From a virus, in UHGV virus genome UHGV-0206210: DNA of 44,081 bases. One strand, 5' to 3'. Shown one piece after another: positions 1 through 11,260 of this stretch. Within the stretch, counting starts at the first letter, position 1; every line of letters starts with the position of its first letter. The notes under the pieces were generated by a model, which worked only from the letters and a program-made list of their open reading frames with translations, ran no database searches and was not told the origin of the DNA. Both the position numbers and the translations under genes were made by a program.

Positions 1-3
1 ATT

Positions 4-2487
4 TTGGCTATAGTTGAAGATCAAATTAGTTTTGCACGTGTAGAAGATGGCGAAGATGGAAGAGGAATCAAAGGGACACCTGTCTCAACTTATGCACAAT
101 CAACAAGTGGTACGACTCCGCCAACTACATGGTCAGATACTAGACCAAATGTGCCAGCTGGACAGTATCTTTGGACAAGAGTTGTCACAACATATACAGA
201 CGACACAACATCAGAAACCCAGACACCTACATTAATGGGAAAAGAAGGAACACCCGGCCTAGGTATTAAATCTAAGTCTATTAGCTATGCAATCGGTACA
301 AGCGGAAATACACCACCAACTAGCGGTTGGCAAGAGTCGATTCCTAGCGTATCAGCAAATCAATATCTTTGGACAAAAACTACACTTGTTTATACTGATG
401 ACTCAAAAACAGAGGCCTATTCAGTTGGGAAGATGGGGGCTAATGGCGCAGATGCCAAACTTCTTTATTTAACTGCATCAGCAGAGAATATTGTGTTTAA
501 TGCTGACGATACACCAAAGACAACACAGACGATCAATATAACAGCAAAGCTCCAAAACGTTACTGGAACAGCGACGTTCGCTGCTATTCCTTATATCGGC
601 AATACAGCACAAGCTGCTATTACGTTAGGCGGAAGTGGGAATACAAGAACCTTAACAAGTGCACAATGGACGAACAAGAACTGGACCTTAATTGTCATCA
701 CTGCCACTTTAGATAATCTAAGCGATACGTTAAGTATTGTAAAAGTAAAGGATGGAAAAGAAGGTGAAGATGGACAAGATGCTCATATATATCAAGCTTA
801 CGCATGGAGCGCTGACGGCACTGACCGCTTTACTACGACATATCCGGGCGAGAATTTAGTCCTAAATTATGATTTCTCGAAAGACCCCACTATTAATGGT
901 TGGACAGGAAATGGTGCGACTATAGAATATTCAAACGGGAACATGCGAGTGTTGTTTAACGACTCATCAACTAACAGAAGAGTCTATTATAGCAATGACT
1001 TATTAACCAACTACTTGCCAGCAGGAGTTAAATATTCCGTCACAATAGACGCATTCAGCAACAATGGAGGGTATATACGGGTAGGTAACTTCGATACTTT
1101 AAGTGCTTGGCAAACAATAAAACAAGGTGATACACCCTCAACGTATAAATTTGAAGGTCTAACCGCTGGGACAAATAATGCTTTTAGTATACAGGGTAAT
1201 TCAAATGCTTTAATTGTACGCATACTAAAAATAAAAATAGAATTAGGAAACACGGCAACCATCTACACATCAGCACCATCTGAAAACTTTATCAATGCAT
1301 ATCCTTCTTATGTAGGATCGTACACAACATTTGATGATGTCCAATCAACAAATCCTGCTGATTATACGTGGCAACGATTCATGGGGAATCAGGGGAAAGA
1401 TGGCGAGGATGGGATAAGCATTGTAGGCGTTGAGGTGCAGTATGCTCAAACTACAACATCGACTGAACCCACTTCGGGCTGGTCTTATACACGTCCTACA
1501 CCCATACCTGGTCAATATTTATGGACAAGAACACGAAATAAATTTTCTGATGGTACATTTGGTTCGTGGGCAACATTTCCAACTATGATTGGCAGAGATG
1601 CAATCGTTGTTTCAGAAATCGCACCTGCTAATCCATCAATTGGTACCCTGTGGCAAAAGCCTAGCGATCCAAATGTACAAAAATGGAACGGTACCAAATG
1701 GGAGAATTGGGGAATCGCACCAGAAAATATTGTAGCGGATAATCTGGTGGTTAAAGATGGTAGGTTTGAAAAACTTGTAGGGGCTGAATTAGAAAGTGGT
1801 ACGATTACCAATTCTTTTGATTTTTGGGATGGGAGCTTAGTACCGAACACTAGTGCTCAGATGTGGCGAAGAGGAAAAACCACTATAAAAAATGCGGAAG
1901 TCACTACTCTTTGGGAAGACTACAACAAAAGCACGGGGGCAAAAGTCAAAGAAGGTGGCGTTATACATGATTCTGATGGAACATCTGTATACATTAATGA
2001 TCCATCTAATTTCAATCAAACAGCTTCGTATAGGTCCTCAGGGATTCTTTTGAGGGATTCTCGTGTTCCTAGCAATGTATCAGGTTCTTTCCTGTCTTAT
2101 AATGATTTATTGATTTATCCTGCTACTCCAATTCCAGCAGCTTCCGGGTGGTCAGCATATGCAACTTCCGGAGCTAACCAGCCGATGGCAGTTAGATATG
2201 GAAGAAGTGTTAGATTAACCGGTGCGTTCAAGAATAATACAACTTTGCCGAATACTAACGAAATTTACAAGATAGGTACCCTCCCTGTAGGTTTACGACC
2301 TTCAACTCAAGAAAAGTGGTTGGCAAAAGGCGCGGGAACAACGATATTCCAAATAACCGTTGATACAAATGGGGATATACTTGTCAATTATCGTCTCGGT
2401 TGGACAGGCAGTACATTTGGTTATCTTACAAACAATTCTGGAGACATTTTCAATATAGCGGGTGGTTTTGCTGCAGCTGATATATAG
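4..2487 (+). CDS. Phage tail fibre / receptor-binding protein. Short collagen-like Gly-X-Y runs and three copies of an approx 38-aa repeat (...TSGxTPPTxxW...GQYLWTR...YTDD).
   Basis: 827-aa ORF. GEDGRGIKGTP, GKEGEDGQD and GKDGEDG motifs. Repeated PTSGW...QYLWT(R/K) blocks. TTG start at position 4 lies 6 nt after a GGAGGG found at the window end (44073-44078). Sits upstream of a holin-lysin cassette. Confidence 0.7.
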   Translation: MAIVEDQISFARVEDGEDGRGIKGTPVSTYAQSTSGTTPPTTWSDTRPNVPAGQYLWTRVVTTYTDDTTSETQTPTLMGKEGTPGLGIKSKSISYAIGTSGNTPPTSGWQESIPSVSANQYLWTKTTLVYTDDSKTEAYSVGKMGANGADAKLLYLTASAENIVFNADDTPKTTQTINITAKLQNVTGTATFAAIPYIGNTAQAAITLGGSGNTRTLTSAQWTNKNWTLIVITATLDNLSDTLSIVKVKDGKEGEDGQDAHIYQAYAWSADGTDRFTTTYPGENLVLNYDFSKDPTINGWTGNGATIEYSNGNMRVLFNDSSTNRRVYYSNDLLTNYLPAGVKYSVTIDAFSNNGGYIRVGNFDTLSAWQTIKQGDTPSTYKFEGLTAGTNNAFSIQGNSNALIVRILKIKIELGNTATIYTSAPSENFINAYPSYVGSYTTFDDVQSTNPADYTWQRFMGNQGKDGEDGISIVGVEVQYAQTTTSTEPTSGWSYTRPTPIPGQYLWTRTRNKFSDGTFGSWATFPTMIGRDAIVVSEIAPANPSIGTLWQKPSDPNVQKWNGTKWENWGIAPENIVADNLVVKDGRFEKLVGAELESGTITNSFDFWDGSLVPNTSAQMWRRGKTTIKNAEVTTLWEDYNKSTGAKVKEGGVIHDSDGTSVYINDPSNFNQTASYRSSGILLRDSRVPSNVSGSFLSYNDLLIYPATPIPAASGWSAYATSGANQPMAVRYGRSVRLTGAFKNNTTLPNTNEIYKIGTLPVGLRPSTQEKWLAKGAGTTIFQITVDTNGDILVNYRLGWTGSTFGYLTNNSGDIFNIAGGFAAADI

Positions 2488-2498
2488 GAGGAATCGAG

Positions 2499-2798
2499 AT
2501 GTTAGAAGAATTTAAAAAACAATATATTGAGAAATGTATTCATGGAGACGGCTTTGACAACGAATTAAACAGCTTGTTTGAACAGGTCTTAATCGAGGTT
2601 TTTAAGGATGATAGCGAAAAAATGAGCGCATTTATCCAATCAATCAATGATGAGATATTACCTGAAGAATTATCTGAGGTTGAACTATTGAAACAAGAGA
2701 ACACAAAGTTACAGGCAGCAATCAAATCCATGCAAGATGAATCTGAAATGGTTCAAAATGCCTTCATGGAAATATCAGATTATGTTTTTTCAAAGTAA
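2499..2798 (+). CDS. Small acidic protein in the XkdW-like position, between tail fibre and lysis genes.
   Basis: 99-aa ORF. GGAGG RBS at 2486-2490 precedes the ATG. Position matches the PBSX-like gene order. No motif recognised. Confidence 0.4.
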   Translation: MLEEFKKQYIEKCIHGDGFDNELNSLFEQVLIEVFKDDSEKMSAFIQSINDEILPEELSEVELLKQENTKLQAAIKSMQDESEMVQNAFMEISDYVFSK

Positions 2799-2812
2799 AG
2801 GAGGAGTGACAA

Positions 2813-2953
2813 ATGGAATTTTCAGCATTGAAAATGTTGTACGCAACACACGTAATTGAAGGAAAACGCACAATCGAAAGTGTGCCAGATATTTTACGAG
2901 AAGATGTTGCAAAAATTGTTGACGAAGCAAAAAAGCCAGAAGGAACAAAATAA
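2813..2953 (+). CDS. XkdX-like small phage protein (46 aa). Too short for the ORF track.
   Basis: AGGAGG RBS 7 nt upstream of ATG 2813. Reads MEFSALKMLYATHVIEGKRTIESVPDILREDVAKIVDEAKKPEGTK. Size and position are typical of XkdX-family genes before phage lysis cassettes. Confidence 0.35.
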   Translation: MEFSALKMLYATHVIEGKRTIESVPDILREDVAKIVDEAKKPEGTK

Positions 2954-2975
2954 TCGGATATACAGTATCAGGGGC

Positions 2976-3012
2976 GATCGGCTTTCTAGCCGGTTGCTTT
3001 TTATTTTAAGCG
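2976..3012 (+). terminator. Rho-independent terminator-like hairpin followed by a T-run.
   Basis: atcggct-ttct-agccggt stem, then tgcttttTatttt. Confidence 0.45.
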
Positions 3013-3024
3013 AGAAGGTGAAGC

Positions 3025-3318
3025 ATGTTAAATGTGGGAGAATTAGCGACGTGGGCTGGATGGGTAATGACAATTATTGGATTAGTTGCATTTGTTGTCC
3101 GGCCAGTAATGAGTAATTTTACGAAAATAGCAGAGAATTTAACTAAACTTAGTCACAGCTTGGATCTATTGAATAGAGATTTGGAAGCTAGCAAATCTGA
3201 TCGTGTTGAGATTCATAACGAACTCAAGCAGCATGATGAACGACTAGACAGGCACAACGAACGACTAATTGAACATGGTGAACAAATAAAATCTCTATGG
3301 AAAGAAAGAGGTAAATAG
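3025..3318 (+). CDS. XhlA-like / holin-associated membrane protein. One N-terminal TM helix plus a coiled-coil.
   Basis: Hydrophobic segment WAGWVMTIIGLVAFVVRPV, then a charged heptad-like tail. Lies immediately upstream of the holin, as xhlA does in PBSX-type cassettes. Confidence 0.4.
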   Translation: MLNVGELATWAGWVMTIIGLVAFVVRPVMSNFTKIAENLTKLSHSLDLLNRDLEASKSDRVEIHNELKQHDERLDRHNERLIEHGEQIKSLWKERGK

Positions 3319-3319
3319 T

Positions 3320-3556
3320 ATGAAAATGACAAACGAACAATATGATTTAGCGAAAAAAATCATTACACAATGGTCTCCAGCTTTGGGTGTTTTAATTGCT
3401 GGAATTGCAACATTATATGATTTTGATGCAACTAAAATCGTTGGAGTGATTTCCTTAGTTACTGCATTTGCAGGTGTAGTGCTGGGAGTTTCAAGCAATA
3501 ACTATAACTATAAAGATTATGGCGATGGCCAAGAATTTACTGATCAAAAAGAGTAG
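3320..3556 (+). CDS. Holin (two TM segments).
   Basis: 78 aa. TM1 PALGVLIAGIATLY and TM2 IVGVISLVTAFAGVVLGV, then a charged C-terminus. Directly precedes the endolysin. Confidence 0.6.
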   Translation: MKMTNEQYDLAKKIITQWSPALGVLIAGIATLYDFDATKIVGVISLVTAFAGVVLGVSSNNYNYKDYGDGQEFTDQKE

Positions 3557-3586
3557 TCGATTGACTGCTCTTTTTAATTTGAAAGG

Positions 3587-4537
3587 ATGGTAAATATGAG
3601 TTTTATCAAATACGAATATATCAGAATCGACAAGTTTTCTCGTCCAGGAATCAAGAACTATGGTATCAAAGGAATTATCATGCATTACACGGCTAACAAT
3701 GGCGGTACTGCCCGAAATCACAAAGACTACTTCAACAATCTGAATGGCGTTTATGCGTCAGCTCATTTGTTTGTAGATGACAATGAAGCTATTTGTATCA
3801 TTCCGTTAGACGAAGTCGCTTACCATGCAAACGATACGGTTAGATACAATTCTGATGGATCTATCTACAAACCTTTATATTCGCAAATTGGCAATGCTAA
3901 TTATGGTGCTATTGGCGTAGAGATGTGCTTGGATAGAAATGGAAATATCACTGAAAAAACATTCCAGAACACTGTTAAAGCTGTCAAAGAATTGATTGCA
4001 AAATATCCAAATGTCACTCGAAACAAGATTTGGCGTCATTATGATGTTACTGGCAAGAACTGCCCGGCTCCATGGGTAGCAAAACCAAGTGAGCTAGAAC
4101 GTTTCAAGGATGCGGTGTTTGGCAAGACTAGCGGTTCTAATTCAACAGCTAAACCTAGCACACCATCTGCAAAGCCAAGCACGCCAGCTACTAAGCCAAG
4201 TTATATTACCTTATCAGTAGATGGCAAGTTTGGTCCAGCCACTGCAAGACGGTTGCAGCAATATTTCGGGACCACTCAAGATAGTGTTATCAGTCACCAG
4301 TATAAGCAAAAGTTTAATCAAAATATATATGCTGCACAATTCGATCAAACATTGAGAGGATCTAATGTAATTCGTGCATTACAGAAATTGTTAGGAGTTT
4401 CTCAAGATGGATTGATGGGCCAAGCAACAATCAAAGCATTGCAGAAACGATTGGGCACGACACAAGACGGCATCATCAGTCCAGTATCCAATGTAGTCAA
4501 GGCGTTGCAGCAAGCGTTGAACAAAAATAAACTGTAA
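3587..4537 (+). CDS. Endolysin. N-acetylmuramoyl-L-alanine amidase (PGRP/amidase_2 type) with a Pro/Thr/Lys-rich linker and two C-terminal PG_binding-like repeats.
   Basis: HYTANNGG...AHLFVDD...AYHAN...NCPAP zinc-amidase motifs. Linker AKPSTPSAKPSTPATKPS. Repeats DGKFGPATARRLQQYFGTTQD and DGLMGQATIKALQKRLGTTQDG. Confidence 0.8.
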   Translation: MVNMSFIKYEYIRIDKFSRPGIKNYGIKGIIMHYTANNGGTARNHKDYFNNLNGVYASAHLFVDDNEAICIIPLDEVAYHANDTVRYNSDGSIYKPLYSQIGNANYGAIGVEMCLDRNGNITEKTFQNTVKAVKELIAKYPNVTRNKIWRHYDVTGKNCPAPWVAKPSELERFKDAVFGKTSGSNSTAKPSTPSAKPSTPATKPSYITLSVDGKFGPATARRLQQYFGTTQDSVISHQYKQKFNQNIYAAQFDQTLRGSNVIRALQKLLGVSQDGLMGQATIKALQKRLGTTQDGIISPVSNVVKALQQALNKNKL

Positions 4538-4545
4538 CAAAAATA

Positions 4546-4570
4546 CCCCTTACTCTTTTGAGTAGGGGGG
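4546..4570 (+). terminator. GC-rich hairpin just after the lysin stop. Weak U-tract.
   Basis: ccccttactc-tttt-gagtagggggg. Confidence 0.4.
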
Positions 4571-4650
4571 CTTATACATAGAGTATTCTCTTTCCTTGCT
4601 TATAAAATGCATCTATTGTAGAATTTTTATGGCGACATTAAATCGTCAAT

Positions 4651-4710
4651 GAAGAGTATTAGGCGGTGGAAGCTTGGGGAAGTGTGCCTAATACTCTTCT
4701 TCTTTATTTT
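4651..4710 (+). terminator. Perfect 14-bp inverted repeat followed by a T-rich tract. A terminator or regulatory hairpin.
   Basis: gaagagtattaggc (4651-4664) and gcctaatactcttc (4686-4699), with a 21-nt loop, then ttctttatttt. Confidence 0.45.
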
Positions 4711-4802
4711 AGCATCATTTTTATTTAATAGATATTATTGATTAGAAAATCGTCTGAAATATTTTATTTGAATTAAATTAAGATAAATTATAGAATAGTG
4801 AC

Positions 4803-4872
4803 AGCCTTTTCAAAGGCTATCTTTTTTTCATTTCTGCGCCCACTCTACCCGAGAGTGGGTTGTTTGTTGTTG
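4803..4872 (+). terminator. Two consecutive terminator-like hairpins.
   Basis: agccttt-tc-aaaggct followed by ctttttttc. Then cccactct-accc-gagagtggg followed by ttgtttgttgttg. Confidence 0.45.
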
Positions 4873-4898
4873 AAAAGCAAACTGATGTTTGGTATAAT
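4870..4898 (+). promoter_or_regulatory. Near-consensus sigma-A promoter (TTGAAA, 17-bp spacer, TATAAT) reading into the 3-gene cassette.
   Basis: TTGAAA at 4870-4875, a 17-bp spacer, TATAAT at 4893-4898. Confidence 0.6.
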
Positions 4899-4932
4899 TG
4901 CTTCATAATCCTCAATAGATTATATCTGCTAT

Positions 4933-4976
4933 AGGAAGTCTAGGAAAACGCTTGTTTTTCGGACTTCCTTTTGGTT
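4933..4976 (+). promoter_or_regulatory. Leader hairpin followed by a T-tract, between the promoter and the first cassette gene. Possible attenuator.
   Basis: aggaagtc (4933-4940) and gacttcct (4962-4969), an 8-bp inverted repeat, then ttttggttt. Confidence 0.3.
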
Positions 4977-5012
4977 TAATTTAATTAGCAGATGAATCGG
5001 AGGTTTTATACA

Positions 5013-6224
5013 ATGGAAATTCCCAATTTCTTGAAAAATGATTTAACGAATGACTATTTAAAAGTGTTCTTGAAGAACAAAAATATTCCATGTTCTAACA
5101 CTAATAAGGCTGAGTTGCTAAACATCCTGAAACACTCTTTAGAAAATAAAAAAATAAGTGAACCAGAGTTTCAAGATTTTTTAGCAAGATATTATAAGTA
5201 CGGGAGAAATAGAATTGTTATTTCAAATATCATCAATTTGACCGTACTTAATCCTATCATGACAAAAAGTAGTCTTGAAAAAAGACTCAGCAATGCGAAA
5301 GAGCCAACTGGATATTTTAATGAAATACTAGATATCTCAGAAACCAAAGAATCAAATGATAGTATGTTCTACCAATCTATTAAATATGATGAAAATGATA
5401 GAACTATGCTTTTTGAAAGAGGATACTTTCGAGATGAAAAAGTTGTTGCTACGGATTCGGATGGGACTCCAATCTATAGTTATAAGAAAGTGTTTACTTG
5501 GGTTGTAATTGATGTAGAAAATAGAAGGTTTAATATCCATACTCGCGATTTAGATCCTAATTATTTTGGCAAAAATACTACAATTAGGCAAACTAATGAT
5601 ACTTTCTTAGATATTTTTAAAAAGATGTTTTCTTTTACTGTATCTAGTGCGCTAAATGAAGAAAGAACTCTATATAATATTTATAAGCATATGACTGAAA
5701 CTGCTGAAGCTCCTTTTAAAAATATGATAACAGATGAAATAAAAAAAGAAATCAGCGATCTATATATACGGGTTTCTGATATTTTGGAGTACAATACCTC
5801 TAAAGATAAGTTGAAAATTCCTAACAGATTTGAAAGGCTATTTGAGAGAGGTTTAATTAATCAGAACTTTGAGGTATACTCTCGGTATGAAGTTGGAAAA
5901 GTAGGGATTATTAAACGAATCGTATTTTTCGATGGTACTGGTGCAAATGTAAGTGCTATGGTAAAAGAAATTAGCGAGAATATAAGTTCGTATGATATTT
6001 ATTTTGATACTCGTGATACTCTTGATGAACGTAAAGCCTTAAATAAACTTTGGGCTTTTTGGTATTTTAAGTCCAGTCTCGATAGTAAAGAAGAAAAATA
6101 CGAAGTAAAGATGGAGATAGAAGAAGATTTCTATGTTACGCATTTTCTGCGAAAAAATATTTTAGAGGAGGTTGCAGAATATGTTTTTCAGCAATTTAGA
6201 AAATTCGAAGTCCTCAATGCCTAA
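5013..6224 (+). CDS. Cassette gene A. Approx 403-aa soluble protein of unknown function. No Walker, HNH, HEPN or other catalytic motif recognised.
   Basis: GGAGG at 4999-5003 lies 9 nt upstream of ATG 5013. The ORF-track start at 4992 is in frame. AT-rich codon usage is visibly different from the flanking phage genes. Confidence 0.6.
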   Translation: MEIPNFLKNDLTNDYLKVFLKNKNIPCSNTNKAELLNILKHSLENKKISEPEFQDFLARYYKYGRNRIVISNIINLTVLNPIMTKSSLEKRLSNAKEPTGYFNEILDISETKESNDSMFYQSIKYDENDRTMLFERGYFRDEKVVATDSDGTPIYSYKKVFTWVVIDVENRRFNIHTRDLDPNYFGKNTTIRQTNDTFLDIFKKMFSFTVSSALNEERTLYNIYKHMTETAEAPFKNMITDEIKKEISDLYIRVSDILEYNTSKDKLKIPNRFERLFERGLINQNFEVYSRYEVGKVGIIKRIVFFDGTGANVSAMVKEISENISSYDIYFDTRDTLDERKALNKLWAFWYFKSSLDSKEEKYEVKMEIEEDFYVTHFLRKNILEEVAEYVFQQFRKFEVLNA

Positions 6225-6681
6225 TAACTATATTATATTATTAGATCATTGGCTTGGGACAATGACGTCCTTATATCACAAAAAGATTAATCCAAGAGAT
6301 TTTTCTTTACAGAATGGAATGGACATTGAGTTTGTACTAAAGCTTTTCGACTTAGCAGTTGAAAGTAACGTTTTACTCCCTAAAATAATTGTGACTAATG
6401 ATGAGAAAGTTCCTTTTGGGACATTCTATAATATTGCGGAGATTCCGGATTACATCGAAGATTTTGAAAATAACACAGAATTTAAAGTTAAGGAACATAA
6501 TTTGGAAATTTGGTATGAGTTGATTGCAGTCCCAAAAGATGAAGACGTACCTGAGAATAACTTTGTAAACAACAATAGCAAGACTAATGCTGATAGACCG
6601 ACATTAGATGTTTTGAAAAAATCAGGTGCGTCTACAACAATGAGAAAGATAGGAATGAAATTAAAAAATTGGGAAAAATAA
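6181..6681 (+). CDS. Cassette gene B. Approx 167-aa acidic protein of unknown function, translationally coupled to gene A.
   Basis: AGAGGAGG at 6164-6171 lies 9 nt before ATG 6181. Overlaps the end of gene A by 44 nt. The ORF-track TTG at 6172 is in the same frame. Confidence 0.55.
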   Translation: MFFSNLENSKSSMPNNYIILLDHWLGTMTSLYHKKINPRDFSLQNGMDIEFVLKLFDLAVESNVLLPKIIVTNDEKVPFGTFYNIAEIPDYIEDFENNTEFKVKEHNLEIWYELIAVPKDEDVPENNFVNNNSKTNADRPTLDVLKKSGASTTMRKIGMKLKNWEK

Positions 6682-7256
6682 CAATAAAACGAATCTTGAT
6701 GTTCTTATTATTTTCAATAATAGTTTTCTTCTTGGGGAGATATTCACATAAAATAAACTTGCTAATTATGGATAATAATTTGTATGGAAATATTATAGAT
6801 TTTTTAGGAAACATATTAATAGCTTTAACTTCTGCGGGTATTGCGTGGTACGTGTCGTACAAAGAATCTTCCAAGAATCAAAGAAAAGATATGCTTGAAA
6901 AAAAACAAGAACAACTTGGTATGCTGAAACTGCTTGCTTTAGAAAACACTTTCAACAAAGCTTCTTTTGAAACAATAAGTGAGACAAATAATTGTTTAGA
7001 AAAACAAAGTGAGTTAAGTAGATTAAGAACTAAAATTTGGGATAGTTTAAAATTCAAGCTAGACCAACCTTCTCAGGTTTTAGAAGATATTTATCTATAT
7101 TATTATCAAATCGAATCGGCAAAAGAACTTTCAAAAGAAGGCATAGAAGAAGATCCTAAAATATTAGAGGATTTAGCACAAATGAATTTAGATATTCTTG
7201 AAATGATAGAAGCTTTAATCAAAAATATAAATGAAAATAAAACTACTTTCAGCTAA
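6669..7256 (+). CDS. Cassette gene C. Small membrane protein with two N-terminal TM helices and a C-terminal coiled-coil/charged domain.
   Basis: Hydrophobic segments FLLFSIIVFFLG and ILIALTSAGIAWYV, then a KESSKNQRKDMLEKKQEQL...-type helical region. Overlaps the gene B stop. Start may be TTG 6669 or ATG 6699. Confidence 0.5.
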   Translation: MGKITIKRILMFLLFSIIVFFLGRYSHKINLLIMDNNLYGNIIDFLGNILIALTSAGIAWYVSYKESSKNQRKDMLEKKQEQLGMLKLLALENTFNKASFETISETNNCLEKQSELSRLRTKIWDSLKFKLDQPSQVLEDIYLYYYQIESAKELSKEGIEEDPKILEDLAQMNLDILEMIEALIKNINENKTTFS

Positions 7257-7274
7257 CTAAGATAAATATTAAAA

Positions 7275-7304
7275 AGACCCTAGTGAAAGCTAAGGTCTTT
7301 TTTC
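7275..7304. terminator. Bidirectional terminator between the convergent cassette and the yolD-like/umuC unit.
   Basis: agaccctag-tgaaag-ctaaggtct, with an A-run on the left and tttttt on the right. Confidence 0.5.
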
Positions 7305-7576
7305 ATTGCTTCAAATTCAATCATAATCTTCGTTTTACCGATTACTGAATATTTCCGAACAACAAATTGCTTCCAATCGTTATAATATCCAGCGACAACG
7401 ATTTCCATTCCTTCACCTACATCTGCCAAAAAGCTCAAACTATGTGCTGCAATCAGACAGTTTACATTATCCAGCGAGAAACGCACTAAAGGGGTCCTCG
7501 ACATTTTCAACACTCGTATCTTCGAAACTACACCTTTCATTGACTTCATGATGATCGCCTCCATACTCTTGTACAT
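7280..7576 (-). CDS. Possible YolD-like accessory protein of the Y-family polymerase. Assignment uncertain.
   Basis: 98-aa ORF downstream of the umuC-like gene. C-terminal VVAGYYNDW...VIGKTKIMIE resembles the YolD-like pattern. A second ORF in another frame (7467-7787) and a 31-aa ATGA-coupled ORF overlap it, so the locus may be frameshifted. Confidence 0.25.
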   Translation of the reverse strand: MYKSMEAIIMKSMKGVVSKIRVLKMSRTPLVRFSLDNVNCLIAAHSLSFLADVGEGMEIVVAGYYNDWKQFVVRKYSVIGKTKIMIEFEAMKKDLSFH

Positions 7577-7713
7577 AGTAATTAAAATCAGTTTTCCCTA
7601 AAGTAACAGCAACATAAAATTCTACGCAACGAGTACCAAATAAGCACTCCTGCGATTCAGATATACTATCAGGAAATTCCTGGACAAAATTTGAATAGGA
7701 GATGTAGCCTTGT

Positions 7714-9078
7714 TCATACTGACTTATGATGTTTATTTTTATCAGTCCCTTCGTTCGAAATACCATCCATACCGCCTGCGTGTCCACCTACCAACTTGCT
7801 CCGAGCAATCGCACGGGCGCCATCAAGTTTGCTATTAGCATGAACAATAGAAGTAAATCCGTATTTCTCTCTTATCTTGTCGATGATCTTATCAAGCTTT
7901 ATCTGCTTTATCTGCTCCTCAGCATCAGCAAATAAATCAAGCTGAACACTTGATGTGTAAATCAATTTTGAATAAGTGATACCAACGTGACGAACCACTT
8001 GGCCAGTATAATATTTACGAAATAGGAACAGTGCGTGCGACACCAATACTTTTGTGTTATCTGTTGGCGGGACAGTCATTTGTCTAGAGAATCCTTTCTG
8101 TGTTTCTCCAAACGCAACACCAATGTAAATGGAAACGCAAGAAGTTTGACAATGATGTCTTCGTATCCTTGCAGCAACCTGTTCCGCCATCTCTTTAACA
8201 ACAATTTCAATTTCATCTTGTAAATAATAATTCCTGTTTAGCACTTGACTATTTCCATAACTTTTATCTCTTGTCTGAGGAGCTGGCTCAGAAATAATCG
8301 TCCGATCAATTCCATTCGCATGATGGTATAACTGTTCTCCTATGATCCCCATTCTACTTCGCAACAAATCGGGGTTAGCCTTTGCGAGTTGTTCTATCGT
8401 TTCTATTCCCATTCGCTCAAGTCGTTTTTGTGTGCGTGATCCAATGCCCCAAAATTCTGTGATAGGAGAGATGTTCCAAACTTTACTTTCCACGTCTTGA
8501 TAGGTCCATTCCGCAATAAGTGATTTATTATGCTTCGATTCGTTGTCTAATGCTAGTTTGGCCAAAAGAGGATTGTCTCCAATCCCAACCGTCACGTATA
8601 GCTTTGTCGTGTCATAGACATCACGTTGAATCATCTTAGCTAGTCGCCATCGTCTTTCGCTTCGAGACAAGCTTTTGTCTGGCACAAACAAGTTCAGCGA
8701 TTTAGTTACGTCCATCATTGATTCATCAATAGAGTAGAGGAGTAGATCCTCATCGGCTACATATTTTCTAAATACATTGTTTACTTTCAGATTTTCTTTT
8801 ATATATAAATTCATCCGTGGAGGGACCTTGAATAGGAGCGGATGGTTCGGTAAATTATCTGCACGAGTAACATTTGAGATTCCCAATTTCTTTTTTGCCA
8901 AGGGAGAAGCAGCAAGGACCAGTCCGTTTCCTGTATTATCAGATTGAGACATGACTACAAGCATGGTTTTCATTGGATGAAATCCACGTTGTACACACTC
9001 GACAGATGCATAAAATGATTTTACATCAACAAAAAGAATGTCACGTTTGGGTTCAAGTTCGTATCTAAAACGCCCCAT
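7714..9078 (-). CDS. Y-family translesion DNA polymerase (UmuC/UvrX/PolY2-like).
   Basis: 454 aa. N-terminus MGRFRYELEPKRDILFVDVKSFYASVE with the conserved FxDxxxFYASVE palm motif. AAGGAG RBS 9 nt upstream on the minus strand. Confidence 0.8.
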   Translation of the reverse strand: MGRFRYELEPKRDILFVDVKSFYASVECVQRGFHPMKTMLVVMSQSDNTGNGLVLAASPLAKKKLGISNVTRADNLPNHPLLFKVPPRMNLYIKENLKVNNVFRKYVADEDLLLYSIDESMMDVTKSLNLFVPDKSLSRSERRWRLAKMIQRDVYDTTKLYVTVGIGDNPLLAKLALDNESKHNKSLIAEWTYQDVESKVWNISPITEFWGIGSRTQKRLERMGIETIEQLAKANPDLLRSRMGIIGEQLYHHANGIDRTIISEPAPQTRDKSYGNSQVLNRNYYLQDEIEIVVKEMAEQVAARIRRHHCQTSCVSIYIGVAFGETQKGFSRQMTVPPTDNTKVLVSHALFLFRKYYTGQVVRHVGITYSKLIYTSSVQLDLFADAEEQIKQIKLDKIIDKIREKYGFTSIVHANSKLDGARAIARSKLVGGHAGGMDGISNEGTDKNKHHKSV

Positions 9079-9105
9079 AATAGCTCACTCCTTAAGGAAA
9101 GTATA

Positions 9106-9118
9106 CGAACGTTTGTTC
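9106..9118. promoter_or_regulatory. LexA (Cheo) box CGAAC-N4-GTTC inside the umuC-like promoter.
   Basis: cgaacgtttgttc lies between minus-strand -35 TTTACA (rc of 9123-9128) and -10 TATACT (rc of 9100-9105), 17-bp spacer. Matches the Firmicutes LexA operator consensus CGAACN4GTTCG. Confidence 0.6.
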
Positions 9119-9195
9119 TGTTTGTAAAGCGAACAGGAAATAAAAAAATCAATCTAGGATAAGCGAGGAAAATAAATTGGTTTGATGATGATAAT

Positions 9196-9228
9196 TGACT
9201 ACCATTTTGACTACCATTTGACTACTAA
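9196..9228. repeat. Three tandem copies of TGACTACCATTT, the third degenerate. Candidate integrase arm-type sites of attP.
   Basis: tgactaccattt tgactaccattt gactactaa. Confidence 0.5.
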
Positions 9229-9229
9229 A

Positions 9230-9329
9230 AAGGAAAAACTACGAAAAGCTTTTCTATAGCTTGAACACCAAAAAAGAGGTAGAAACCTCTGTGTAATAGG
9301 GTTTCTACCTCTCAGGAAAAACTACGAAA
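9230..9329 (-). terminator. 13-bp perfect inverted repeat. With the T-run on the minus strand it acts as the integrase terminator. Flanked by 17-bp direct repeats aggaaaaactacgaaaa.
   Basis: agaggtagaaacc (9275-9287) and ggtttctacctct (9300-9312). On the minus strand, ttttttggtgtt follows the stem. Direct repeats at 9230-9246 and 9313-9329. Confidence 0.5.
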
Positions 9330-9401
9330 ATCTAATCGATTTTAGTCTATGGAGATGGCGGGAGTCGCATTTTTATTGATAGAACAATGCTTCTTTAGAA
9401 A

Positions 9402-9423
9402 TGACTACCATTTTGACTACCAC
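9402..9423. repeat. Two more tandem TGACTACCATTT copies, immediately 3' of int. Arm-type site candidates.
   Basis: atgactaccattttgactaccacg. Confidence 0.5.
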
Positions 9424-9425
9424 GA

Positions 9426-10568
9426 TTAAAAGTCAACGTAATTATTAAACCTATTTGCTAACTGCTCTTTTGCTGTTTTTGATACGTGGGTATATACATC
9501 CATTGTAGTTTGGATGTCAGAATGACCAAGCCTTGATTGAACGTCTTTAATAGAAGCACCGGCTTCAAATAATAACGATGCATGTGTGTGACGAAAGCCA
9601 TGAATAGATATCTGTTTGAAATCATCCGGCAAGTTTTTCATGGCAGTTAGGTACCATTTTCTCGGTTTAGCAGGCGATAATATTCCTCCATCTTCACTTT
9701 GAAAGACTAAACCATCTGGAGACTTTTTTTTGTACTCTTGTAATATAGACACAGTTTTGTCATCAATTGAGATTCTTCGAATAGAAGAAGGAGTTTTTGG
9801 CGTTTGAATATAAAGCCCTGTTGCACTTCTCGAAACAGCCTTGTTTATGTATAATGTTTGTTTTTCCAAATCGATATCAGACCATTTCAGCGCTAATGAT
9901 TCTCCTTTGCGCATTCCGGTAAATGCTAACAAACGAAAATATACAAAAGATCTAAAATTGTTGTTGTTTTCTAAAGCTGCCATAAATTTCTTCAACTCAT
10001 CTTTGTCATAGAAATTCATATCTTTGTCTTCTCTAACTGATTCCTTCCTTACAGGCTTCTTAATCACTTTTGTTGGATTCATATTGATCAATTGCATTCT
10101 TATTGCGTAATCAAATACCAATCCAGCATAATTCATAACCATGCTTGCACGCACAAGCTTCTTGTGCCAAATATTCATTTGATTCTGTGCATCCATCGGT
10201 TTGATGTCTTGTATAGGTTTATTACCAAATGCTGGAAGTATATGATTTTTGAAAACTCGCTCTGTTTTTAGTAACGTTGAAGCTTTAACTGTTGTTTTGT
10301 ATTCCTCATACCATAGATTATATATCTGTTCATAGGTATGAATCATTTGTGGTTCAGACTCTGGTTTTGATAATCCGTTTAGTTCTAAATCAGCGATTGC
10401 TAAACGTGCTTCTCTTTGAGTTCTAAAGCCACGTCTTGTAGTGCGGATTGGTTTTTTGGTGTCTTGATCAATGCCAAGATACAGCTTAAACATATAAGCT
10501 TTTTCGCCATTTTTTTTGACGTATTCTTTTATTCGGATATCCTGTTCTTTCTTAGCCAATTGCTTCAA
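9426..10568 (-). CDS. int: Tyrosine site-specific integrase.
   Basis: C-terminal HGFRHTHASLLFEAG...LGHSDIQTTMDVYTHV (R..HxxR..Y catalytic motif). TTG start. RBS spacing favours the TTG at 10559. Confidence 0.85.
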   Translation of the reverse strand: MKQLAKKEQDIRIKEYVKKNGEKAYMFKLYLGIDQDTKKPIRTTRRGFRTQREARLAIADLELNGLSKPESEPQMIHTYEQIYNLWYEEYKTTVKASTLLKTERVFKNHILPAFGNKPIQDIKPMDAQNQMNIWHKKLVRASMVMNYAGLVFDYAIRMQLINMNPTKVIKKPVRKESVREDKDMNFYDKDELKKFMAALENNNNFRSFVYFRLLAFTGMRKGESLALKWSDIDLEKQTLYINKAVSRSATGLYIQTPKTPSSIRRISIDDKTVSILQEYKKKSPDGLVFQSEDGGILSPAKPRKWYLTAMKNLPDDFKQISIHGFRHTHASLLFEAGASIKDVQSRLGHSDIQTTMDVYTHVSKTAKEQLANRFNNYVDF

Positions 10569-10663: not shown

Positions 10664-11260
10664 TTATTCATCCCATGTTGCTTGACCGTAAGTAACGGAA
10701 TATGGCGCATTTCCTTTGGAAGAAAAGTGCATAATCACTGTTGCTTTTTTGCCGCCTGCTATAGTATGGGGAATATTATTCAAATAGGTAGAAGCATCGA
10801 AAGTCGCTAATTCAGAGTTCCCATCGTACAAATCGAATGTCTGAGCATTAAAGTCTATTGGTTCGTTAGAAGTATTTTCTACTATTGCCGTTACAACAAC
10901 AGGATGCTCACCTTCTTTAGGATCATCTAAAGTTACTGAATCGTCTGCTTTTACCTCAGTAACAGTAATCTTCTCTTTCGTTGTGAACTCAGCCGATTCT
11001 CCATATTTAAACGAACTAGCCGATGATGCAGAATTGTCATCTTCTTGGGTAGCAGATGTGCCTTCAAATAAATTCTCAAAATTTGCTACTCTTTCAGACA
11101 GCTCACTGTTTTCTGATTTCAATTTTGAATTCTCAGCTGTTAAACTATCTACTGTATCTTGCAAATCTGAATCGTTAGATGCTCCTGCTTGACCATTCTG
11201 TCCACTGCATCCGGAAAGCAACAACGCACTAAACAAAACCCCAAAGATTACTTTTTTCAT
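10664..11260 (-). CDS. Prophage lipoprotein. Signal peptide with lipobox LLSGC, a Ser/Asn-rich linker and a beta-sandwich-like C-terminal domain. Candidate superinfection-exclusion or surface moron.
   Basis: MKKVIFGVLFSALLLSGCSG. Location between int and the repressor module is typical of sie/Ltp-type genes. Confidence 0.55.
   Translation of the reverse strand: MKKVIFGVLFSALLLSGCSGQNGQAGASNDSDLQDTVDSLTAENSKLKSENSELSERVANFENLFEGTSATQEDDNSASSASSFKYGESAEFTTKEKITVTEVKADDSVTLDDPKEGEHPVVVTAIVENTSNEPIDFNAQTFDLYDGNSELATFDASTYLNNIPHTIAGGKKATVIMHFSSKGNAPYSVTYGQATWDE

Follow-up and report, generated by a model that had tools for sequence, protein, structure and literature searches.

The 44,081-nucleotide virus genome UHGV-0206210, referred to here as the window when the whole stretch is meant, is that of a ~44 kb temperate Enterococcus phage or prophage, and toward its lysin–attachment end it carries a three-gene cassette (genes A, B, and C) with a promoter, a structured leader, and bracketing terminator hairpins. 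We lean, with limited confidence, toward the reading that this cassette is a three-component, Rex-like phage-exclusion or abortive-infection system of the lysogen. The defense reading is favored because the cassette is exchanged between prophages as a module, is located on mobile elements and in defense islands, appears to swap its effector, and encodes a protein with a predicted Rex-like sensor fold. A first-pass annotation of the same DNA, made from the letters alone, had proposed a novel defense or abortive-infection candidate; the module exchange, the mobile-element and defense-gene contexts, the effector swap, and the lack of a match to any known defense model are all in keeping with that proposal, but the system now looks akin to lambda RexAB and not wholly new.

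Anatomy and exchange of the cassette

The lysis region of the window is 86–87 per cent identical to that of E. gallinarum phages, and E. casseliflavus is the source of the closest protein relatives. A Dp-1-type holin and an Amidase_2 lysin (lysin end, 4537) are followed by a 330-bp spacer with four hairpins inside it, and then by the cassette, whose features are given here with those of the spacer.

4541–4573, plus strand: hairpin (CCCCTTACTC...GAGTAGGGGG) directly past the lysin stop codon, read directly from the sequence; likely the terminator of the late/lysis transcript
4651–4699, plus strand: second terminator-like hairpin, with a perfect 14-bp inverted repeat and a T-rich run downstream of it
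4800–4821, no strand assigned: hairpin with a terminator-like score on both strands
4838–4860, plus strand: GC-rich terminator-like hairpin immediately 5' of the cassette promoter
4870–4898, plus strand: sigma-70-type promoter, TTGAAA-17-TATAAT with a TG extension, an 11/12 match and the top site of the region
4907–5012, plus strand: conserved structured leader RNA, identified from folds, a covariance model, and compensatory changes
5013–6224, plus strand: gene A, 403 amino acids (aa), with GGAGG 8 nt upstream; the mechanical open reading frame (ORF) starts at 4992
6181–6681, plus strand: gene B, 166 aa, with AGGAGG at 6166–6171, 9 nt upstream and inside the 3' end of A
6669–7256, plus strand: gene C, 195 aa, with a TTG start
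7271–7302, no strand assigned: bidirectional intrinsic terminator common to the cassette and a convergent operon of a 98-aa gene and a Y-family polymerase gene

Genes A and B overlap by 44 nt and genes B and C by 13 nt. The start that an ORF finder gives for B, TTG at 6172, was ruled out, as it abuts the AGGAGG and the ATG at 6181 is the start kept in all relatives. Promoter-like sites occur in the region at chance level overall (16 found against 15.8 expected); for the cassette promoter, the −35 element, the spacer, and the −10 element are all kept in two further loci, L023 and L024. A match to the Rfam family BSnc120 (29 bits, 7254–7337) proved to be merely the downstream terminator hairpin. 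The GC content over 4870–7304 is 0.299 against 0.375 for the window, and the cassette is the lowest-GC 2.4-kb interval of all 44 kb, lying 3.4 standard deviations under the mean.

Much of this anatomy had been described in the first-pass annotation and is borne out here, including the near-consensus promoter, the two overlaps, which are exact, all four upstream hairpins, the downstream bidirectional terminator, the two membrane-spanning segments of C, and an AT-richness that had been judged by eye and is now computed. The length given for A also stands, but B has one residue fewer than the 167 claimed and C is slightly longer than the ~190 estimated. The leader hairpin is real but was described too narrowly, being part of a conserved structured RNA that includes a terminator-like hairpin.

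The limits of the cassette as a mobile unit can be read from a comparison with L023, a metagenome-assembled prophage that shares the tail, holin, amidase, and Y-polymerase backbone of the window. By blastn the two are 91.7 per cent identical over 1–4781 and 88 per cent over 7268–9367, whereas the two A proteins are only 43 per cent identical and only short patches align between the flanks. Since the flanks are conserved and the interior is diverged, the unit of exchange can be placed as follows.

4782–7267, plus strand: exchangeable module, the diverged interval between flanks that are 88–92 per cent identical to those of L023

Base composition, signals, and exchange are all in line with the cassette being an independently transcribed, horizontally exchanged module, a conclusion that we regard as supported.

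The leader is ~105 nt long, and conservation of the 5' untranslated region exceeds that of the genes, this being the best-aligning part of the cassette when the window is compared with L023, L024, and L006. The interval 4905–5020 folds at −33.9 kcal/mol (z = −4.2 against shuffled controls) into a 5' hairpin and then an outer helix of 9–10 bp (AUAUCUGCUA/UAGCAGAU) around a long hairpin of variable sequence and the U-rich CUUUUGGUUUAAUU; as modeled, this amounts to an intrinsic-terminator-like element within a closing helix. In the window, a CCUC of the leader is also able to pair with the GGAGG of gene A. When folded independently, eight of nine Enterococcus leaders take the same shape, and a covariance model built from nine sequences recovers all Enterococcus cassettes at 85–117 bits. 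The same model matches the leader of a metagenome locus that was not among its seeds (L036, 94 bits), though the A protein of that locus is only 24 per cent identical to window A. In the model-fitted alignment 96 per cent of cells are paired as against 44–49 per cent with slid partners, a figure favored by the fitting of the alignment to the structure, and six pairs show compensatory changes. No Rfam family was found for the leader, and neither the covariance model nor the comparison of loci found it outside Enterococcus-type cassettes. It could act by attenuating a toxic operon, as a switch that responds to infection, as a site of processing, or as a small RNA. Its positions in other loci are the following.

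L001/L002, 7897–8003: leader
L005, 7893–8000: leader
L006, 7888–8003: leader
L023, 5899–6003: leader
L024, 5896–6003: leader
L025, 5897–6003: leader
L026, 5900–6003: leader
L036, 1878–1981: leader

Distribution of the family and its two forms

A word-indexed search with protein A returned 17 clusters, and all those with a named source were from Enterococcus. The exhaustive HMMER profile search, which covered 1.84 billion representatives, returned 89 clusters at 50 per cent identity, 51 of them at E≤1e-30, mostly of ~400 aa. Scans of genome, viral, and metagenome contigs placed loci in Rossellomorea, Pelosinus, Paenibacillus, Bacillus, Psychrobacillus, Desulfotomaculum, and Sporomusa as well as on unassigned viral and metagenome contigs. 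The A–B–C trio is present in ~35 loci (Enterococcus, Paenibacillus, Bacillus, Rossellomorea, Psychrobacillus, Pelosinus, and metagenomes) with gene sizes, internal ribosome-binding site, and overlaps all retained, and where enough downstream DNA is available the usual layout is an A of ~400 aa, a B of ~160–185 aa, and a C of ~185–200 aa with N-terminal hydrophobic segments.

Many of the trio loci come directly after holin–lysin genes or have integrase, ImmA, or repressor genes next to them. The prophage lysins that the trio usually follows are unrelated to one another (GH25-LysM, Amidase_2, and Amidase_3), and in E. hirae one cassette allele is found behind two of them, GH25-LysM and Amidase_2. 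The trio also occurs at the margin of small elements, behind replication genes, and at one locus beside lepA with phage genes absent upstream; five cassettes (L005, L008, L013, L025, and L026) are remote from lysis genes. At loci with no evident prophage the neighbors are defense genes: in Rossellomorea (L008) the trio sits between a Type I HsdR (PADLOC, 2e-145) and a NERD+UvrD helicase (2e-92), and in a Bacillus metagenome-assembled genome (L013) a metallophosphoesterase that PADLOC terms an 'Effector endonuclease' (1e-74) is encoded near the trio.

Protein B is soluble and has a conserved N-terminal helical domain (MYFxxL...DxWL), its relatives starting M-[YF]-[FY]-x-x-L. Outside Enterococcus and Psychrobacillus, B proteins, those of Bacillales included, contain a central zinc ribbon, CPxC...CxxC; when the B genes of the window and of L008–L019 are compared, all four ribbon cysteines prove to have been lost in Enterococcus and Psychrobacillus from sequence that is still alignable around them. 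Three loci, from Desulfotomaculum (L020), Paenibacillus agilis (L021), and Sporomusa (L022), keep A and B, lack C, and extend B by ~180 residues.

L020, 6722–7807: B-fusion gene with the ~180-aa extension, C gene absent
L021, 7205–8329: B-fusion gene with the ~180-aa extension, C gene absent
L022, 6767–7855: B-fusion gene with the ~180-aa extension, C gene absent

The string GKALE...NQIDVTV...CECK is invariant in all three fused domains, a pattern as in PD-(D/E)xK nucleases, and one of the three proteins gave a weak match to Pfam Mrr_cat (E 0.023). Profile searches of the PDB and NCBIfam with the fused domain were empty, and a scan of viral contigs found no relatives of it. Judged by these motifs, the three loci look like an effector swap in which a nuclease-like domain stands in place of C. 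Immune systems typically show this kind of modularity, here a conserved unit of A and the B N-terminus coupled with a membrane protein in some loci and with a nuclease-like domain in others.

Two further arrangements were observed among the trio loci. In Psychrobacillus sp. NEAU-3TGS (L018, 5501–6747) gene A is split into two pieces, 142 and 140 aa long, with B and C intact, which looks like a decaying copy. On one Paenibacillus ottowii contig (NZ_VIJZ01000002.1) two loci, L011 and L012, lie ~60 kb apart with ORF maps that are identical over 13 kb, including lysis genes and A–B–C, which suggests a duplicated or tandem prophage.

Component proteins and their relation to Rex

Protein A is soluble with an isoelectric point of 5.9. 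The first-pass annotation had advised family searches of all three proteins together with structure prediction and Foldseek, and for A the latter yielded a usable AlphaFold2 monomer model (16-sequence alignment; predicted local distance difference test, pLDDT, 78.8; predicted template-modeling score 0.80). The model shows an N-terminal SAP-like helix–extended–helix motif and then an RdgC-type two-domain fold. Foldseek matched it to RdgC from two species with probability 0.92–0.97, and among the best structural matches in BFVD are proteins bearing the names 'exonuclease' and 'recombination-associated protein', probably RdgC-like proteins of phages. The Pfam SAP domain (PF02037) is found at the N-terminus of eight of 68 A relatives, and PDB sequence profile searches with A, B, C, and the nuclease-like domain returned nothing beyond weak SAP matches. 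In Pfam, NCBIfam, PHROGs, and PADLOC no significant family was found for window A, B, or C, the best E-value being 0.005 or worse. The earlier statement that no known catalytic or defense-family motif is recognizable in the three proteins thus holds for family matches but not for the predicted SAP-like motif and RdgC-type fold of A.

The most conserved motifs of A are RLFERGLI, DxTGAxVxA, DIYFDTR, and LDKLW, and residues R272, R279, D307, G310, D332, W347, and W350 are invariant. The D-x-T-G-A was considered as an aspartic-protease or P-type-ATPase signature and set aside, its spacing being, in our own reading, unlike D-[TS]-G-[AS] and DKTGT.

Protein C begins with a basic N-terminus and has hydrophobic segments at about residues 8–27 and 40–62, taken as transmembrane segments TM1 and TM2. 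The latter is the most conserved part of the C family, with the motif GNIIDFLGNILIALTSAGIAW in the window and GNIIGGIxGGxIAY, a glycine zipper, in Bacillales. The charged tail of ~130 aa is probably cytoplasmic by the positive-inside rule. No consistent Pfam family was found among 20 C homologues, and the only holin family match, phrog_4237 (E 0.026), is not significant.

These components invite comparison with RexAB. The 2024 crystal structure of lambda RexA revealed an RdgC/IML3/CHL4 fold and non-specific DNA binding (PMC11077077), and in a RexAB-type system of P. putida, described in 2026, a DNA binder resembling RexA switches on a membrane protein and the cell is permeabilized (PMC12894663). 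In the Rex literature, the outcome is that other phages are excluded via membrane damage (PMC11077077, PMC12894663). As with RexAB, the cassette is prophage-encoded and set apart from the lytic genes, and it combines a small membrane protein with a soluble component for which the RdgC/IML3/CHL4-type two-domain fold is predicted. The RexAB-type systems that we take as the class for this comparison also comprise the Rex-like genes of mycobacteriophages Sbash and CarolAnn and the P. putida pair PP_5643/PP_5644. To our knowledge, what RexA senses and how RexB is activated have not been settled in ~70 years.

There are also considerable differences from lambda RexAB. Protein A has 403 residues against 279 for RexA, bears the additional SAP-like N-terminus, and is structurally closer to RdgC than to RexA, which is not among its top structural matches. 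The cassette has a third, translationally coupled component in B, and its C protein, with two transmembrane segments and a ~130-aa cytoplasmic domain, is unlike the four-TM bundle of RexB. It is located at the lysin–att end as three genes with their own promoter, whereas rex consists of two genes co-transcribed with the repressor; a nuclease-fused variant occurs in the family, and the Enterococcus cassettes have the structured leader RNA. On present sequence comparisons, the cassette is therefore best described as Rex-like in anatomy and not a member of the Rex family. RdgC itself (PDB 2OWL/2OWY) has no sequence similarity to A across 68 members, and it is a stand-alone chromosomal gene of Proteobacteria without a membrane partner. 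The cassette also resembles multi-gene abortive-infection systems in pairing a conserved sensing module with exchangeable effectors (a transmembrane protein or a nuclease), in being carried on mobile elements or in defense islands, in its AT-richness, and in its rapid allelic turnover. It differs from that class in that none of the 5027 models of PADLOC-DB v2.0.0 (2023) matches A, B, C, or their distant relatives significantly, the best PADLOC scores of the distant relatives (E 0.004–0.07) being to Cas5_IIIg and PDC-S05, the latter over ~35 residues. In the literature searches made, a SAP + RdgC-like sensor fold was not found for defense systems other than Rex.

Proposed mechanism, alternatives, and the att end

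A Rex-like exclusion system of this form might operate as follows. In the prophage state the cassette's own promoter would drive transcription, insulated by the terminators from the late lysis operon, and the structured leader with its terminator-like hairpin could keep expression low or conditional. Protein A, with its predicted SAP motif and RdgC-type clamp fold, would bind DNA and detect an infection-specific DNA or DNA–protein intermediate, and B, translationally coupled to A, may be the adaptor that relays this signal to the effector. Protein C, through its glycine-zipper second helix and cytoplasmic helical domain, would then oligomerize and permeabilize or depolarize the membrane such that infection stops. 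In the sister systems without C, the PD-(D/E)xK-like domain on B would be the alternative effector.

Several observations weigh against this account. Sequence methods do not link the cassette to Rex or RdgC: an hhalign comparison of a 68-sequence A profile with lambda RexA gave a probability of 0.7% and of C with lambda RexB one of 3%, no cassette protein matched Pfam RexA or RexB, no Pfam RdgC match was found among the 68 A members (E≤0.01), and window A had no Pfam match at E≤1. Within the A model, residues 283–336 (window 5859–6020), which contain the conserved DxTGAxVxA and DIYFDTR, mostly have pLDDT <50, and this segment may be a partner- or ligand-dependent site; the B model, at pLDDT 47, is too poor for use. 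The nuclease identity of the domain fused to B draws on one weak hidden Markov model match and a motif, and the defense-gene neighborhood on a handful of loci assessed by inspection. No member of the family was found in 50,697 deposited phage genomes or 72,556 plasmids, searched by DNA and by tblastn with three A variants, which implies that the family is rare. Finally, although gene structure, conservation, genomic contexts, allele exchange, the modeled fold of A, and the leader structure are results of the analysis, DNA binding by A, the order of signaling from A through B to C, the membrane damage, and the anti-phage phenotype itself are steps that we infer.

Several other functions could be envisioned for the same genes. 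It is unlikely, in our estimate, that the cassette is a regulator of the prophage life cycle or of DNA metabolism, in which A would act as RdgC does (on RecA, recombination, or the SOS response) or bias the choice between lysis and lysogeny, with B and C tethering or tuning it and the Y-family polymerase perhaps taking part. The RdgC-type fold of A would suit such a role, given that RdgC is an inhibitor of RecA and that RexA by itself biases the lambda switch (PMC11077077), and the cassette adjoins a Y-family polymerase operon in both the window and L023. Among the gene-mapped loci, however, these are the only two with the polymerase beside the trio, which is also found outside prophages and beside restriction genes; nor would a membrane partner with a nuclease-like replacement be expected of a recombination regulator, and the deep allelic divergence within one slot suggests conflict-driven evolution. 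We give slightly less credence to non-abortive superinfection exclusion, whereby C would anchor A and B at the membrane and the complex would clamp or block incoming DNA at injection, leaving the cell alive. A prophage moron position is typical of superinfection-exclusion genes in Firmicutes, and the predicted clamp-like fold and SAP motif of A together with a membrane protein bearing a large predicted cytoplasmic domain could be arranged in this way. The strongest conservation in C is nonetheless in the TM2 glycine zipper, pointing to a function within the membrane, and the nuclease-like variant has no membrane anchor, so tethering is not essential to the family.

More doubtful than either is a toxin–antitoxin-like addiction module without a dedicated anti-phage role, with C or the fused nuclease as toxin and A/B or the leader RNA as antidote. 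The genes are tightly coupled, the membrane protein might be toxic, the highly structured and conserved leader, which bears a terminator, could give rise to a small RNA, and the cassette is always found on mobile elements, all of which would fit. Yet no known antitoxin resembles the DNA-clamp-like component of 400 aa, no toxin–antitoxin family match was found in Pfam, NCBIfam, or PADLOC, and the L018 locus, with A broken and B and C intact, would be lethal if A were the sole antidote. An accessory lysis function such as a holin or antiholin regulator we consider very improbable: the cassette follows holin and lysin, C is a small membrane protein, and there is the weak PHROG holin match (E 0.026), but that match is not significant, the cassette has its own promoter with four hairpins between it and the lysin, and the five cassettes named above lie away from lysis genes.

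The cassette has somewhat short of an even chance of being the founding member of an undescribed, Firmicutes-wide three-component defense family, composed of a SAP + RdgC-fold clamp sensor that would be a deep structural relative of RexA, an adaptor, and interchangeable effectors (a glycine-zipper membrane protein or a nuclease), with a leader that gates expression in Enterococcus through its embedded terminator. No description of the family was found in literature searches on SAP-domain or RdgC-like defense proteins or on Enterococcus post-lysin prophage defense. Were this to be true, the Rex paradigm, in which an RdgC-fold protein senses a DNA intermediate, would be an ancient and modular strategy of immunity, not something peculiar to lambda, and its Gram-positive form would give a new way of finding out what Rex-type sensors recognize. 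The cassette would be independent of Rex and unrelated to it in sequence while following the same fold logic, and, with a dedicated adaptor protein and a choice of two effectors, it would make sensing and signal transfer open to comparison. It would also add an unannotated defense family to the prophages of Enterococcus, Paenibacillus, and Bacillus, a point of relevance to enterococcal phage therapy and to the prediction of resistance mediated by prophages, and the leader RNA might prove to be a new cis-regulatory element that controls a toxic operon.

Downstream of the shared terminator lies the convergent two-gene unit on the minus strand (7280–9078), comprising the gene for a 454-aa Y-family (DinB/UmuC-like) DNA polymerase and, downstream of it, that for the 98-aa protein (phrog_15227). 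The pair is also present in L023 and may be a prophage-borne mutagenesis or damage-tolerance moron. Its two genes intervene between the cassette and the phage attachment site (attP), which the first-pass annotation had mistakenly placed next to one another. Homology to the integrated L023 prophage stops at 9367 and the tyrosine integrase stop codon is at 9426; because the L023 homology breaks off where it does, the probable attP core, as judged from the alignment, is at ~9368–9425, beside the integrase stop. The host genes that border the L023 prophage encode a Hydrolase_3 protein and an SdpI/two-component system. The repressor region of the window is ~4.5 kb from the cassette, on the far side of the integrase, and a 198-aa lipoprotein with a DUF4352 domain is encoded on the minus strand (10664–11260) beside the integrase gene and upstream of ImmA-like (M78) and XRE repressor genes, a position that is usual for a lysogen-expressed surface or superinfection-exclusion protein.

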